Shown: positions 370 to 7,451 of the stretch, piece by piece | Layout: each line of letters opens with the position of its first letter | Numbering within the stretch: the first letter of the stretch is position 1 | Origin: Candidatus Bathyarchaeia archaeon | Lineage (GTDB): Archaea; Thermoproteota; Bathyarchaeia; Bathyarchaeales; Bathyarchaeaceae | Length of the DNA stretch: 58,677 nt | NCBI GenBank assembly: GCA_046760805.1 | Contig: JBHIEV010000002.1 | Location: 1-58,677 of the forward strand | Reading direction: 5' to 3' | Program-made: the position numbers and the translations under genes | The notes under the pieces: model-generated | The model's database searches: none | The model's input: the letters and a program-made list of their open reading frames with translations, nothing else | Told to the model about the DNA's origin: nothing

Positions 370-438
370 ATGGAAGAAGAGGAAGAAGACTGGGAAGAGG
401 AAGAAGAAGAGGAGGAATGGGAAGAAGAGGAATGGTAG
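370..438 (+). CDS. Mini-ORF encoding the 22-aa poly-Glu/Trp peptide MEEEEEDWEEEEEEEEWEEEEW
   Basis: ATG at 370 lies 8 nt downstream of GGAGGTG (355-361) and the stop TAG is at 436-438. T-rich tracts follow at 457-469. A paralogous peptide is encoded at 4328-4399. Confidence 0.35.
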   Translation: MEEEEEDWEEEEEEEEWEEEEW

Positions 439-4071: not shown

Positions 4072-4327
4072 CATGATCTAAAGCTCAGTTTATGAGATTA
4101 ATGGACCAAATGACCTCATCGTGAAGATCAAAGCAAACGGGCTCGACGAGACGAGAAACCTTCCCCAATCTTCGATCAGATAAATCGGCTTCATTTCTTG
4201 TATATAAAGAAGAAAAGAAGAACGTTCCATGCCTACAATAGCCAAAAAAGGATAGTTTGGCCTTCTTTTTTCAAAAAAATCCGTATATCCAAATTGCAGA
4301 TTTAAAAACCGTTTCGGAGGTAGAAAT

Positions 4328-4399
4328 ATGCCCTGCCACCGTTCAGAAGAAGAGTGGGGAGAAGACGAAGACTGGGAGGAAGAAGAAGAGGAGTGGTAA
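4328..4399 (+). CDS. Mini-ORF encoding the 23-aa acidic Trp-containing peptide MPCHRSEEEWGEDEDWEEEEEEW
   Basis: ATG at 4328 lies 5 nt after GGAGGT (4317-4322) and the stop TAA is at 4397-4399. It has the same (acidic run)-W x3, C-terminal EEW organisation as the peptide at 370-438. Confidence 0.35.
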   Translation: MPCHRSEEEWGEDEDWEEEEEEW

Positions 4400-4403
4400 A
4401 ATA

Positions 4404-4451
4404 ATGGCAAAAAAGAAGAAGCCAAAGAAGAAAGAGAAAAAAGAGAAGTAA
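4404..4451 (+). CDS. Mini-ORF encoding the 15-aa polybasic peptide MAKKKKPKKKEKKEK
   Basis: The ATG lies 4 nt after the stop of the acidic mini-ORF. This is the C-terminal part of track ORF 4257..4451. It is followed immediately by a hairpin plus T6. Confidence 0.25.
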   Translation: MAKKKKPKKKEKKEK

Positions 4452-4460
4452 AGGGAACGA

Positions 4461-4493
4461 GGTAGATTAGGCCGACCTTAATCTCCCTTTTTT
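4461..4493 (+). terminator. Hairpin followed by T6, an intrinsic-terminator-like or attenuator-like element
   Basis: AGATTAGG (4464-4471) pairs with CCTTAATCT (4476-4484) with a one-nt bulge and a 4-nt loop. TTTTTT follows at 4488-4493. Confidence 0.4.
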
Positions 4494-4751
4494 GAATTTT
4501 AATCAGGGTTCTTCACCACTTTTTGCAGTAGGTTGAAGGCCTTTTTCTACTGGATCCCTCTGTGAAAAAGTGTTCGAATGATTTTTCTGTCAACCTCGAA
4601 CAGCATGTTGATGACAAAAAGCCTTTAAGAAAGGATTGCGTGAATTTCTGAGTTAAGGAGCTATAGGATGCTGTGTTAGCTTCAAAGGAGTGCACTGATC
4701 CAGAGATGGATCAAAGAACTGGCATGATCGCTCATAGGCTCCAAAGATGCA

Positions 4752-6026
4752 GTGACGGCGCGGTGTCTGAAGAGTGGAGGCGATGCTGGATGGATGAGGG
4801 TGGTAGTGATGAGGGAGACCGTTATGAAGGAGACTCCAGCCACGAGATTCGGCACAAGCTTAGGCCAATCTCTGCTCTCGCTCTCCTTCAATCTGGGAGG
4901 ATTGCTGGCTGGAACACTACTCGCCCTATTCTTCGATGTGTTCTCTCTTGCTCCATGGACATTGGTTCTTTTCCCGGGCATACTTAGTATAAGAGGGGCG
5001 ATAGGCGGTCTTTTCAGTGGCAGATTGGGTACAGGTCTGCATCTAGGAACAGTCAGGTACAGCTACACCAAAAACACGAGATATTTCTACCTGCTTCAAA
5101 ACGCTGTCGTCACGTTGACCTTTGTGAGCGGCATTGCTATAGGGTTGACAACATGGATATTCAGCGTAGTTTTCTGGGGAGCAACGATGGCAGATTTCCT
5201 AAATATAGCAGTCGTGGTCGTGGCAACCATGGGTTTATCTCTCGTTTTGGTGTCTCCACTAACGATAGTGATCTCCGTCTTTTCTTTCAGGCGTGGTTTA
5301 GATCCTGACGTCATCGTATATCCGGTAGTGTCAACGGTCGCTGACATTCTTGTTACAGCCTGCTACGTTTTGTGCCTAAGCATTTTCTTTTCGTCAACAG
5401 CGCTTGGATATTTCTTAATCGGAGCGCTTAACCTCGTCTTTTTGTCAGTTGTACTCTACATTCTAGCTAAGAACAGACAAGAAAAAGAGTTCGTCAAAAC
5501 AATCAAAGAGTTCCTCTTCACTCTCATATGTGTTGTTTATATAGTCAATCTTACCGGCTCTCTACTTAACCAATTGCGGAACGTAATAGGTGCCAGACCT
5601 GAGATATATATCGTGTATCCCGCCTTAATTGACACTACTGGAGACGTCGGCTCTATTGTAGGTTCAACCGCAACCACTAAACTCGCTCTGGGCACTATTG
5701 GACCAACCTTTTCCTCAATCAAGCAACACAAAGCAGAGATAAGCAGTGCATGGGTAGCTTCGGTGGTAATGTTTACTTTTTACTCAATAATCTCATTGCT
5801 TGTCTGCGGGATGGCGACTTTAGGAAATCTTTCATGGCTTGCAGCGAGACTCCTGATTACTAACATCTTAGCAGTATCCATTATGATAGCCATATCCTAC
5901 TTTGTGGCCATGGTCACCTATAGAAAAGGCTTGGACCCAGATAACTTTGTGATTCCGATCGAAAGCTCTTTGGCAGACAGCGTAACTACAATCTCTCTTC
6001 TCACAGCAGTGATGTTAATTGCATAG
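4752..6026 (+). CDS. Divalent-cation (Mg2+) transporter with two MgtE/SLC41-type transmembrane repeats and no cytosolic N/CBS domains
   Basis: The polytopic membrane protein has two repeats, each ending in the MgtE-TM signature (RRGLDPDVIVYPVVSTVADILVT and RKGLDPDNFVIPIESSLADSVTT). The true start may be ATG 4794, 4809 or 4824, and all three are SD-preceded. Confidence 0.8.
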   Translation: MTARCLKSGGDAGWMRVVVMRETVMKETPATRFGTSLGQSLLSLSFNLGGLLAGTLLALFFDVFSLAPWTLVLFPGILSIRGAIGGLFSGRLGTGLHLGTVRYSYTKNTRYFYLLQNAVVTLTFVSGIAIGLTTWIFSVVFWGATMADFLNIAVVVVATMGLSLVLVSPLTIVISVFSFRRGLDPDVIVYPVVSTVADILVTACYVLCLSIFFSSTALGYFLIGALNLVFLSVVLYILAKNRQEKEFVKTIKEFLFTLICVVYIVNLTGSLLNQLRNVIGARPEIYIVYPALIDTTGDVGSIVGSTATTKLALGTIGPTFSSIKQHKAEISSAWVASVVMFTFYSIISLLVCGMATLGNLSWLAARLLITNILAVSIMIAISYFVAMVTYRKGLDPDNFVIPIESSLADSVTTISLLTAVMLIA

Positions 6027-6043
6027 TTTATTTGGTCTCACTG

Positions 6044-6568
6044 CTACCCAGCGACTAACCGTTTCAGGTCCTCTACGCCTTCAGCGTAACCCGACGCAAT
6101 CAACATATCACCAGCTCTAATCACCGTGTTTGGACGAGGCCTCAACCACCTCTTTCCCCTTCGAACCACCAACACCCACATACCTGTCTCTTCGGGAATT
6201 TTGGCATCTCGCAATCTCTTCCCCAGAAGTGCGGAGTTGCGTGGAACGTACACCCTAGCCACCGTCTCTTCAGCCTCTTTTATGACTTGTTTCAAGATGG
6301 GGTGTGGTTCTGACACTCTCAGGATGACATCGGCGATCTCTGCCGCGGCGTCAGCGATCTCCTCAGTAACAATTCCTAACCGTATCAAGCCAAGAAAATC
6401 CTTGGACTCATCTGGCTTAAAGCCGGTCGACAGTACTAGGAGTTCAAAATCCGTGTGCAGTTTATCCACATGTTCTTCGAGTTCCTGCACCTCTTCCGCA
6501 AGTTCTTTGCTGTTAAGGAGCAATGAGGAGTATGCAAGATCTACCATAAGTTCAGAAGTATCCTTCAA
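6044..6568 (-). CDS. PhoU-like helical domain plus TrkA-C (RCK C-terminal) domain regulatory protein
   Basis: The helical block DLAYSSLLLNSKELAEEVQELEEHVDKL is PhoU-like. The C-terminal TrkA-C-like beta domain reads LLGKRLRDAKIPEETGMWVLVVRRGKRWLRPRPNTVIRAGDMLIASG. It is a paralog of 6622..7236. Similarity continues upstream of the TTG start (see findings). Confidence 0.7.
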   Translation of the reverse strand: MKDTSELMVDLAYSSLLLNSKELAEEVQELEEHVDKLHTDFELLVLSTGFKPDESKDFLGLIRLGIVTEEIADAAAEIADVILRVSEPHPILKQVIKEAEETVARVYVPRNSALLGKRLRDAKIPEETGMWVLVVRRGKRWLRPRPNTVIRAGDMLIASGYAEGVEDLKRLVAG

Positions 6569-6621
6569 AGACGCGAGCTTACTTGCGATTTCTCTGAAAG
6601 GCTTTTCAATATGTGACAGCT

Positions 6622-7236
6622 CTAGCCCTCCTCAGCATGTTTCTCAGTAGGTCCTCCAGCAAGTTTCTCCAGTTCATCGACGCCGCGAGGAGCTCCTCTG
6701 GCGAAGAGAACATCGCCTTCGCCAATCATCACTTCTTCGTCGGGATCGATTAACCATTTCTTGCCACGCCGAATCGCAATTACGTCAACTCCGATCTCAG
6801 CTGCGAGTTCCAACTCTCCCAGTCTCTTCTTCACAAAAACCGAGCCAGACTTGACCTGAGCTCGCGCCAACCGTTCCTCAACCTTCTGAAAAGCCTCGCG
6901 AACTATGGGATGAACACCGATCTCATGAAGTACAATAGTTGCAATGTCGGCAGCCGCATCAGAAATCTTGTCTGTGGCTGCTGCCACTTTTGTCACTCCG
7001 ATGAGCGATTCCGCGTCTTCCGCGTCTCTAGCTGCGAGCATAGCGTTCATGTCCAGTATGTAAGCGAGATAATCTACGCGCTCTTCTAGTTCAAGAACCT
7101 CTTCGGCGAGCTCACGCTTGTGGAAGAGAGCTGCGGAGTACGCTAGATCGATCATTATCTCTGAGAGGTCCTTCATTTCTGTAAGTACTTCTCGGACGGA
7201 GACAGGCTTGTACTCAATTCTCTCTGATTCTGTCAA
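6622..7236 (-). CDS. PhoU-like helical domain plus TrkA-C domain regulatory protein
   Basis: It has the same architecture as 6044..6568 (DLAYSAALFHKRELAEEVLELEERVDYL ... IGVDVIAIRRGKKWLIDPDEEVMIGEGDVLFARG). TTG start. Confidence 0.75.
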   Translation of the reverse strand: MTESERIEYKPVSVREVLTEMKDLSEIMIDLAYSAALFHKRELAEEVLELEERVDYLAYILDMNAMLAARDAEDAESLIGVTKVAAATDKISDAAADIATIVLHEIGVHPIVREAFQKVEERLARAQVKSGSVFVKKRLGELELAAEIGVDVIAIRRGKKWLIDPDEEVMIGEGDVLFARGAPRGVDELEKLAGGPTEKHAEEG

Positions 7237-7451
7237 ATGGAGGAAACACCTTCAAAACAACGTGGTTGCGGACGAACAAGTTAAACTCGATATGTAGATG
7301 ACGGATGCTGTCTTTTTAATTTTATCTGTAGGGACTAGCTGGTGAAAAATTGTTTTTCCATGCGGCTAGAACCTGCTGTGCCTTTTGGTTCTCATGGAGA
7401 AGCATAGTTCACATATAAAGCCGTAGCATCACATTATGGTCGGATAACCAA

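Follow-up and report, generated by a model that had tools for sequence, protein, structure and literature searches.

DSS1/Sem1 is a eukaryotic, disordered, and highly acidic protein of 70-90 amino acids (aa) in which conserved Trp and Phe residues serve as anchors in the basic grooves of several partners. It can mimic nucleic acid, and its partners are PCI-domain proteins and BRCA2, which are not known in the archaea considered here. LysW is a small protein of archaea and Thermus with a Zn-ribbon and an acidic tail that includes a Trp (EDWGE), the terminal Glu being the attachment site, and is encoded with LysX/ArgX ATP-grasp genes. Prothymosin-alpha and histone H1 form a eukaryotic pair of ~110-200 aa in which one chain is extremely acidic and the other extremely Lys-rich. 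Here, we describe genes for Glu- and Trp-rich microproteins, two copies of which are present in a 58,677-nucleotide (nt) stretch of a Candidatus Bathyarchaeia archaeon (GenBank assembly GCA_046760805.1, contig JBHIEV010000002.1, positions 1 to 58,677 of the forward strand; hereafter the window). One copy is upstream of the gene for ABCE1 and the other is upstream of a gene for an MgtE-type Mg2+ transporter. They are members of an unannotated microprotein family that is Thermoproteota-wide.

Other described systems involve ABCE1 itself or acidic nascent chains. The disordered C-terminal tail of the ribosomal stalk protein aP1 (P1/P2 in eukaryotes) binds, via hydrophobic residues, a pocket of nucleotide-binding domain 1 (NBD1) of ABCE1 and activates ABCE1 (PMC6125642). 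In the cytosolic iron-sulfur protein assembly (CIA) system, Lto1 serves ABCE1/Rli1 specifically (PMC4523923; PMC10245660; 10.64898/2026.04.06.716496). Runs of Asp and Glu (D/E) at the N-terminus abort translation through intrinsic ribosome destabilization (IRD), and bulky residues just ahead counteract this effect (10.1101/2021.02.02.429294). IRD is strongest when acidic runs are N-terminal (10.1101/2021.02.02.429294; PMC9718836). The original prediction, made from the letters of the window, offered two roles for the mini-open reading frames (mini-ORFs), stand-alone acidic microproteins or cis-acting translational sensors. Stand-alone microproteins fit our findings best; the role of cis sensor is not supported for MgtE and is weakened for ABCE1.

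Acidic Mini-ORFs Are Conserved as Peptides

Mini-ORF 1 (370-438) translates to MEEEEEDWEEEEEEEEWEEEEW and mini-ORF 2 (4328-4399) translates to MPCHRSEEEWGEDEDWEEEEEEW; window features are on the plus strand unless stated otherwise. Each has three Trp and a stop codon directly after a Trp. The two copies are members of different subfamilies, with mini-ORF 1 belonging to the ABCE1-adjacent type 1 and mini-ORF 2 to type 2. Across six frames of the window, they are the only two stop-to-stop segments with at least 10 D/E in 15 residues as well as the only ones with a [DE][DE]W-stop ending, and no such acidic segment arose in 100 first-order Markov simulations of the window. Translation and the six-frame scan thus confirm the claim of two Glu/Trp mini-ORFs that are preceded by a Shine-Dalgarno (SD) sequence and end in EEW. 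They also bear on a concern raised with that claim, namely that GAA-rich tracts could be equally common in all frames and strands of the genome; in the window, the two copies are the sole six-frame examples. Spacing between SD and start codon was predicted to be 5-8 nt. This is correct for mini-ORF 2, with GGAGGT at 4316-4321 and 6 nt before the ATG (kept as tttGGAGGTagaaacATG in loci L087-L094), but slightly off for mini-ORF 1, in which GGAGGT at 355-360 is 9 nt before the ATG, or 7 nt when the element is read as GGAGGTGA (355-362). The latter is near-invariant in essentially all relatives. An in-frame ATG at 337, upstream of mini-ORF 1, is present in the window but is not conserved among relatives. 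Across the family, peptides are 20-36 aa in length, have a D/E share of 57-82% with the acidic stretch beginning at residue 2-7, and have a side-chain net charge of -12 to -23. In composition, they would suit an IRD-type leader extremely well. The peptide of S. acidocaldarius or M. sedula has neither Lys nor Arg and an expected intact mass of ~3-4.5 kDa.

For type 1, we scanned 80 ABCE1-anchored loci, one genome per species, in six frames. In these loci and the window, 43 of 43 matches are on the ABCE1 strand and none are on the other. All 43 end in Trp, with a filter that also admitted terminal Phe or Tyr, and all have the [DE][DE]W-stop ending; the peptides of Sulfolobus acidocaldarius, Metallosphaera sedula, and Acidianus infernus end in EEW or DEW. 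A minority sub-variant among relatives ends in WEDEET or WEDEEM instead of Trp. The typical peptide of Bathyarchaeia is M(V)FEEEEEWEEEDWEEEEWEEEEW-stop, encoded on the ABCE1 strand by an ORF whose end is usually 110-130 nt upstream of the start of ABCE1. In the Bathyarchaeia consensus, four Trp are five residues apart (i, i+5, i+10, and i+15), a spacing from which no amphipathic helix results. Hence, having exactly three Trp, as originally noted, describes the two window copies but is not a feature of the family.

The peptide is more conserved than its DNA context. Thirteen species share an identical 21-residue tail, EEEEEWEEEDWEEEEWEEEEW, encoded by DNA that differs only in GAA/GAG and GAC/GAT choices, and TAA, TGA, and TAG are all used as stop codons among them. 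Across 12 of the identical-tail genomes, nucleotide identity is 93% in the ORF, compared with 67-71% in the flanks, ~80% for the ABCE1 protein, and 75% at the third positions of GAN codons; this group was chosen for its identity, and the informative contrast is that of the ORF with the flanks and ABCE1. The sequence of the mini-ORF is at least as constrained as that of ABCE1.

The conserved features are specific to one frame. Acidic-frame starts (18 ATG, 10 GTG, and 7 TTG) are 5-9 nt after the near-invariant SD, and only the acidic frame is bounded by both an SD-spaced start and a stop that immediately follows its final Trp. Of 147 codons that precede a Trp, 143 are GAA, GAG, GAC, or GAT, which encode E/D in the acidic frame; the corresponding +1 reading is N/S/T/I. 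Composition alone keeps the +1 frame open, with ends that are variable and unconserved, and stops interrupt the +2 frame within the tract in at least 10 loci. The Lys and Arg frames, which form overlapping ORFs at 320-496 and 4257-4451 in the window, were rejected as the true product because the acidic frame alone has a conserved start, end, and pre-Trp codons. Indels in relatives of type 1 and type 2 keep the frame, which is the outcome of a check suggested with the original prediction, and substitutions are synonymous or exchange E and D, on one strand only. With strand specificity, frame-specific boundaries, codon-sized indels, and higher identity than the flanks, these tracts do not behave as a neutral (GAA)n repeat. 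Start, frame, Trp positions, and the Trp-stop junction are kept across dozens of genomes, bearing out the earlier argument for selection on the peptide. We take it as shown that the gene is real and that its acidic-frame peptide is under selection.

Codon usage is uneven in these genes. The ratio of GAA to GAG is 2.2:1 in type-1 mini-ORFs (416 vs. 186) and 0.81:1 in seven long genes of the window. The preference for GAA may reflect avoidance of internal SD-like strings (GAGG or GGAGG) or a constraint on decoding.

The original prediction knew of no described family of this kind, and database searches agree. Pfam (four representatives) and NCBIfam scans of representative peptides gave no meaningful match at E ≤ 10. 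A profile search of 5.8 billion proteins yielded 17 weak matches with a best E-value of 0.03, and all 17 are the same peptide family with artificial N-terminal extensions and labeled "hypothetical protein." The exact peptides of S. acidocaldarius, M. sedula, and Hyperthermus butylicus are not in a collection of 15 billion sequences. We found no description of archaeal Glu-rich/Trp microproteins, or of an upstream ORF (uORF) or microprotein associated with ABCE1, in the full-text literature searched.

Linkage to ABCE1 Is Deep but Separable

The downstream neighbor of type-1 mini-ORFs is ABCE1 (RLI). In the window, ABCE1 (554-2350) has Pfam domain Fer4_RLI and two ABC_tran domains, is 88% identical to ABCE1 of Bathyarchaeia (sequences of metagenome-assembled genomes, MAGs), and starts 115 nt after mini-ORF 1. 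We tallied a locus as linked when a mini-ORF was within 1 kb upstream of ABCE1 and on the same strand. Linkage was found in 45 of 55 loci of Bathyarchaeia, six of seven Desulfurococcales-type loci, and three of four loci of Sulfolobaceae, and in none of the 14 Asgard loci or the eight other archaeal loci.

Loci of cultured organisms were gathered by using ABCE1 of Zestosphaera, then of Acidianus, as queries. The mini-ORF encodes MKWILLEEEEEWWEEEEEEEWWEEEEEEEEWEEEEW in H. butylicus (148 nt upstream of ABCE1), MKWLILDEEEEWWEEEEEEEEWWEEEEEEEEWEEEEW in Pyrodictium occultum (241 nt), MEEDWEEDLEEEEWEEETEEDWEEDEW in A. infernus (35 nt; the record is labeled MAG by NCBI), (M)VFEEDWEEEFEEFEEEEDWEEEEDWEEEW in S. 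acidocaldarius (49 nt), and MEEEWEDIEEEEWEDIEEEEDWEEDEW in M. sedula (44 nt). These five ORFs have not been called as genes, except for one 30-aa call in an assembly of S. acidocaldarius. The upstream neighbors all differ among the three Sulfolobaceae (a major facilitator superfamily transporter, AdoHcyase, and ribose-5-phosphate isomerase), whereas the pair of mini-ORF then ABCE1 is constant, with a gap of 35-49 nt.

Three loci show that the pair can be separated. In locus L032, an intact consensus ORF is 896 nt from ABCE1, with two minus-strand ORFs that have weak matches to methyltransferases in between. In L060, the ORF is downstream of ABCE1, after a Pribosyltran gene and a gene in the position of Cgi121, and faces a convergent gene. 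In L059, the mini-ORF and ABCE1 are separated by a TFS/RPB9-like gene. Linkage to ABCE1 is deep, yet coupling is not obligatory.

Other features were observed at these loci. The intervening gene of L059 (5579-5860) starts 29 nt past the mini-ORF and encodes a 93-aa protein with only an N-terminal Zn-ribbon of the RPB9/TFS type and an acidic C-terminal half. In Desulfurococcales-type loci, the gap between the ORF and ABCE1 has a probable C/D-box small RNA (sRNA) gene on the opposite strand. The candidate has an invariant opposite-strand core, GTGGTGACGGC, flanked by C-box (AUGAUGA), C'-like, and D-box (CUGA) motifs. It is located at ~7880-7945 in L100, ~5845-5905 in L066, and ~5885-5945 in L059, is also present in L101, and is degenerate in L097 and L098; these gaps had no Rfam match at the gathering threshold for the candidate. 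In L103 (Saccharolobus shibatae, CP077717.1; 369-3209 and 3210-4000), an SSV-like provirus with homologs of F-112, D-63, and F93 abuts the region upstream of ABCE1. L103 lacks an acidic mini-ORF within 4 kb and is the sole locus of Sulfolobaceae examined without one.

Predicted Expression Signals of Type-1 Genes and ABCE1

Type-1 genes carry what appear to be expression signals of their own: a TATA-like box, an SD, and a T-run. In the window, a BRE/TATA-like element, gaaacgCTTAATAAg (291-306), is the putative promoter of mini-ORF 1, and 36 aligned relatives have the same element (acgCTTAAAAag or gaaaatGCTTAAAg) ~50-70 nt upstream of the start codon. Past the stop, a T-rich tract, ttcttttacctttttcttct (454-473, with T5 at 464-468), is a probable oligo-T terminator. 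T content is highest 20-40 nt past type-1 stops. Runs of at least four T within 60 nt of the stop occur in 39 of 40 loci versus 32% of random windows, and runs of at least five T in 30 of 40 versus 10%, but since the background is mostly coding DNA, this enrichment is overstated relative to AT-rich spacers. The S. acidocaldarius locus, on the minus strand, likewise has a TTTTATAA box and a T6 tract.

ABCE1 appears to have its own promoter. TATA-like elements in the window are TATAAATA (492-499) and AAGTTTATTAT (503-513), and the AAGTTTATTAT / CATATTTATaa element, ~50 nt before the ATG of ABCE1, is conserved in relatives. It is kept where the mini-ORF is absent (L012, L013, L038, and L043) or decayed (L006, L025, L029, and L071), and it is from this retention that we predict a promoter independent of the mini-ORF. 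Fusion of mini-ORF 1 to ABCE1 by read-through was considered and rejected; the frames differ, and the length of the spacer is variable and not divisible by 3.

These signals bear on the best surviving alternative to independent microprotein genes, that the ORF is a cis-acting uORF that sets the expression of ABCE1. The share of ribosomes that complete the IRD-risky poly-Glu ORF, or the share that stay unrecycled after termination at the Trp when ABCE1 is scarce, would control read-through of the T-run or re-initiation at the start of ABCE1 and thereby provide homeostatic feedback; type 2 would similarly gate translation of a Lys-rich ORF that starts 4 nt downstream of its stop, a spacing that suits the idea. 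We consider a uORF unlikely. A near-constant place on the same strand as ABCE1 and a short distance upstream of it (mostly 110-130 nt away in Bathyarchaeia and 35-49 nt in Sulfolobaceae, in which adjacency survives complete turnover of upstream neighbors) is expected of a uORF, but the T-run and a separate TATA element of ABCE1 intervene, and that element is kept in genomes without the ORF. The SD of ABCE1 in M. sedula, GGGAGGTG, is just past the mini-ORF, as is typical of an internal operon gene, but in Desulfurococcales-type loci the gap has the probable opposite-strand sRNA gene. Regulatory arrest and leader peptides are likewise conserved in amino acids up to the stop codon. Nevertheless, the ORF is perfectly conserved when uncoupled from ABCE1 (L032 and L060), and the same peptide design recurs in paralogs that are unrelated to ABCE1. 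Both bacteria and eukaryotes are established to undergo IRD at N-terminal D/E runs, mgtL exploits the effect, and the analogy drawn in the original prediction is legitimate (PMC9718836; 10.1101/2021.02.02.429294), but IRD is not known from archaea and the proteome of Pyrococcus furiosus exhibits no avoidance of N-terminal D/E. As a cis sensor for ABCE1, mini-ORF 1 therefore retains the argument of deep adjacency but is weakened by the T-run, the TATA element of ABCE1, and conservation in L032 and L060.

C-Terminal Trp and a Possible Role in Fe-S Protein Maturation

The conserved ending raises a second alternative, in which the peptide is an adaptor or signal for Fe-S maturation of ABCE1. With its acidic body, the peptide would hold on to the basic Fe-S domain of apo-ABCE1 while the Trp-carboxylate docks a DUF59/Cia2-like delivery protein, as an archaeal analog of the C-terminal Trp of Lto1 and of the tripeptide recognized by the targeting complex, [LIM]-[DES]-[WF]-COOH. 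Eukaryotic ABCE1/Rli1 has a specific requirement for an adaptor that binds the CIA targeting complex through its C-terminal Trp (PMC4523923), and the [DE][DE]W-stop of all 43 matches, in synteny with the Fe-S protein ABCE1, is consistent with such a role. However, we find no sequence relation to Lto1 and no deca-GX3 motif, and some relatives end in WEDEE(T/M) rather than Trp. At the antepenultimate position, nearly all members have Glu or Asp instead of Leu, Ile, or Met, though recognition is dominated by the terminal aromatic residue and free carboxylate, with residues further upstream being secondary in peptides that end in Trp (10.64898/2026.04.06.716496). The same ending is found in types 2 and 3, which adjoin no Fe-S protein gene; no archaeal receptor is known, no search aimed at DUF59/Cia2-like or WD40 partners having been made in these genomes; and the ORF is near ABCE1 in none of the 14 loci of Asgard archaea, the closest relatives of eukaryotes. 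We judge this adaptor role very improbable.

Type-2 and Type-3 Genes Are Paired With Lys-Rich Mini-ORFs

The genes of the window are ordered ABCE1, triose-phosphate isomerase (TIM), an ARMT1-like phosphatase, mini-ORF 2, the MgtE-type transporter, and two PhoU/TrkA_C genes. In L086, ARMT1 is followed directly by a glycogen-debranching enzyme; relative to that locus, the window holds an inserted block of MgtE and the two PhoU/TrkA_C genes (4072-7450 in the window vs. 8205-9115 in L086), and the type-2 pair of mini-ORFs is at its edge.

We compared mini-ORF 2 across ten MgtE-anchored metagenome loci. Orthologs with the pattern MPC[AR]RSEEEW...EEW-stop are present in L087, L088, L089, L093, and L094, and a variant is present in L091; they are 23-28 aa and in frame. 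A Lys-rich partner, missed in the original prediction, follows 4 nt after mini-ORF 2 (4404-4451; 15 codons; MAKKKKPKKKEKKEK), and the last codons of mini-ORF 2 (GAGGAGTGG) double as its SD. Similar 15-mers (MAKKKKKPKKKKEKE-like) are present at the identical 4-nt spacing in L087, L088, L089, L091, L093, and L094. SD-preceded Lys-rich mini-ORFs number ten in 1.06 Mb; seven are type-2 partners and one is an alternate-frame artifact. The bicistronic type-2 unit ends in a terminator-like hairpin, AGATTAGG-ccga-CCTTAATCT, followed by T6 (4464-4493), and relatives have an equivalent stem and T-run after the unit. A 111-aa antisense ORF (4090-4425) that overlaps mini-ORF 2 was dismissed as poly-Ser junk with no Pfam match.

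A third subfamily, type 3, is encoded on the opposite strand in relatives and fuses a Lys-rich head to an acidic Trp-terminated tail, MSKKKPKKR-EEEEEEEEPEEEEWEEEEW (MSKKKPKKR-E8-P-EEEEWEEEEW). These ORFs, with their own TATA and SD, are on the minus strand of L087 (1311-1409), L088 (1228-1374), L089 (1060-1206), and L094 (1928-2026). Approximately 70 nt downstream of type 3 is an SD-led Lys-rich ORF, (M)AKKKPAKKPEKKKEKKEY. A gene for an Lrp/AsnC regulator is located between the type-3 and type-2 units in relatives, with the type-3 unit divergent from the regulator; the window has neither type 3 nor the regulator. A further SD-preceded Lys-rich mini-ORF, MQEKPKRKKRGKKKSA, was observed downstream of the type-3 unit on the minus strand of L088 (762-812) and L089 (594-644). 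That acidic and Lys-rich peptides are co-encoded, translationally coupled, and fused suggests that the two kinds work as partners.

The MgtE-type gene (4752 or 4809 to 6026) begins 350-410 nt past mini-ORF 2 and has its own promoter-like box, AAAAAGCCTTTAAGAAAGG (4616-4634), which starts ~120 nt past the terminator-like hairpin and is followed by a ~160-nt leader (to 4808). Box and leader are conserved in L087-L095. The ATG at 4809 (MRETVMKE), preceded by GAGGGTGGT, is more likely the start codon than the mechanically assigned GTG at 4752, because conservation of the stretch before it is at the level of nucleotides rather than codons. The leader is nearly invariant at the nucleotide level, even where identity of the MgtE protein is 59%. 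It includes a hairpin at 4697-4712 that is GAUCCA-GAGA-UGGAUC in the window and GAUCCA-GNRA-UGGAUC across relatives. RNAalifold predicted a consensus structure of -32.6 kcal/mol, with compensatory change in only four of 49 pairs, and Rfam had no relevant match around mini-ORF 1, mini-ORF 2, or the MgtE leader. We suggest the leader is a candidate cis-regulatory RNA for the Mg2+ transporter in Bathyarchaeia.

This arrangement decides against the original suggestion that mini-ORF 2 is a sensor for the transporter, since the bicistronic unit ends in a hairpin and T6 and MgtE has a separate promoter-like box and leader; both of these are present in L095 (MgtE of 59% identity), which lacks the mini-ORFs. 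A broader version, in which the peptides are buffers or sensors of Mg2+ or polyamines that are tied to Mg2+ homeostasis, with mini-ORF 2 working with the MgtE/PhoU block, is extremely improbable. Poly-carboxylate chemistry would bind cations, and IRD is Mg2+-sensitive in bacteria, but neither explains the strict positions of Trp and the terminal Trp. Likewise, orthologs of mini-ORF 2 are upstream of MgtE in relatives in which the transporter is 72-87% identical, but for type 1, which is the widespread form, there is no connection with cation transport.

Weakest is the possibility that no acidic peptide is made and that the tracts are neutral GAA repeats or encode a product in the overlapping Lys/Arg frame: GAA repeats hold the +1 frame open and GAA/GAG changes are conservative K/R changes there, but strand specificity, in-frame indels, an SD-spaced start and Trp-stop in the acidic frame alone, four GAN codons before Trp that would read N/S/T/I in +1, a broken +2 frame, and an ORF far more conserved than its flanks effectively refute it.

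A Proposed Trans-Acting Role for the Microproteins

We favor a reading in which these are independently expressed microprotein genes and their products are trans-acting disordered polyanions, mostly ending in a [D/E][D/E]-Trp carboxy terminus, and we put the chance of this being correct at about even. The peptides would mimic nucleic acid or an acidic protein tail and dock on basic partners with aromatic or hydrophobic pockets. Bulky aromatic or hydrophobic residues at approximately every fifth position, together with the terminal Trp-carboxylate, would serve as anchors. Type-2 and type-3 peptides most likely have the co-encoded Lys-rich micropeptide as their partner, with translational coupling in type 2 and a fused Lys-rich head in type 3. 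For type 1, the position adjacent to ABCE1 points to the machinery of ribosome recycling, and the most concrete candidate site is the NBD1 pocket for the C-terminal tail of aP1, where binding would tune recruitment or activation of ABCE1. A hydrophobic residue after Met and periodic Trp would also allow a poly-Glu run at the N-terminus to be translated, in line with the "size principle" that counters IRD.

A more specific form of this reading is tentative, possible but short of probable. It holds that type 1 is an ancient Thermoproteota (Bathyarchaeia, Desulfurococcales, and Sulfolobales) microprotein partner of ABCE1, docking either in the pocket for the stalk tail or as an Fe-S adaptor similar to Lto1 and controlling recycling or ABCE1 maturation, and that paralogs are polyanion/polycation pairs with Lys-rich 15-20-mers.

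Several considerations weigh against a trans-acting partner of ABCE1, in addition to how the identical-tail group was chosen and how the background for T-runs was composed. The constant same-strand position directly upstream of ABCE1 fits a regulatory uORF equally well, and the SD-led start of ABCE1 in M. sedula suggests co-transcription. Deep synteny may in part be frozen gene order; genes for fructose-bisphosphatase (FBPase) and TIM, functionally unrelated to ABCE1, are also conserved neighbors. In a transcriptome-type resource for S. acidocaldarius, an atlas (PMC12817955), ABCE1 is Saci_0672 (NC_007181.1, 532970-534784, minus strand), and in the portion of its RefSeq-based annotation available to us there is no feature between Saci_0672 and the tRNA gene Saci_0674. 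Lastly, translation in vivo, action in trans, and the identities of the partners are what we infer from these patterns, the assignment of partners purely so.

In archaea and eukaryotes, few proteins are as conserved and essential as ABCE1, and the mini-ORF has traveled along with it since before the split of Bathyarchaeia and Sulfolobales, escaping annotation because it is only 20-36 codons long. A family conserved beside ABCE1 from Bathyarchaeia to Sulfolobus points to an unrecognized player in archaeal translation. Its N-terminal poly-Glu runs are what bacterial and eukaryotic proteomes avoid, since translation aborts. Were it to act on ABCE1 itself or on the ribosome, the peptide would be an unknown control point of ribosome recycling. 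If it is cis-acting, it would be a case of regulation based on a nascent peptide in archaea, of which none turned up in the literature searched. Either way, the family bears on whether IRD exists in archaea. Should the role as a partner of ABCE1 be true, it would add a new regulatory layer to a universal, essential translation factor along with a new class of archaeal micropeptide pairs. The acidic/Lys-rich pairs are conserved coding genes below every standard length cutoff in archaeal intergenic DNA, and the type-1 gene is present in the genetically tractable S. acidocaldarius and in M. sedula.

Comparison With Known Systems

No known family accommodates these peptides. Resemblances to described systems are nevertheless informative. 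As with DSS1/Sem1, the peptides are small, disordered, and highly acidic with conserved Trp, but the four representatives did not match the PF05160 profile (Pfam, E ≤ 10). LysW also has an acidic C-terminal tail with a conserved Trp. Unlike LysW, the mini-ORF peptides lack a Cys4 ribbon and mostly end in Trp, and there is no ATP-grasp gene in the neighborhoods examined. Similarity to the CIA/Lto1 signal is in an acidic residue followed by a C-terminal Trp with free carboxylate. The mini-ORF peptides differ in having Glu at position -2 and in lacking a deca-GX3 domain or any GX3 repeat, and no archaeal receptor of the Cia1, Cia2, or Met18 type is known.

Leaders of the MgtL/IRD type are also short SD-led ORFs with an acidic run at the very N-terminus and located upstream of another gene. 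In the archaeal family, however, the whole peptide, including Trp positions and terminal Trp, is conserved across classes of archaea, and the mini-ORF has its own promoter- and terminator-like signals, persists when uncoupled, and has no evident alternative RNA structures. An MgtL-like ORF would be inside the 5' leader of its target with no terminator or promoter in between; for MgtE and ABCE1 such signals are predicted to intervene, though the 35-49-nt gaps of Sulfolobaceae are ambiguous. Nor is the ORF found only with a regulated gene, given L032, L060, and paralogs in unrelated contexts.

Two further systems bear on the proposed mode of action. The acidic and Lys-rich chains, as putative partners, recall prothymosin-alpha and histone H1; the archaeal micropeptides are 15-28 aa and have no homology to that pair, but they are co-encoded in types 2 and 3 or fused in type 3. 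The tail of aP1 is part of a ribosomal protein, ends in LxxLFG-type residues, and forms a short helix when bound, whereas the peptide of the mini-ORF stands alone, is much more acidic, and carries Trp at periodic positions. Like the mini-ORF peptides, the aP1 tail is disordered, Glu-rich, and ends in a few hydrophobic or aromatic residues, and type-1 peptides may likewise bind ABCE1.

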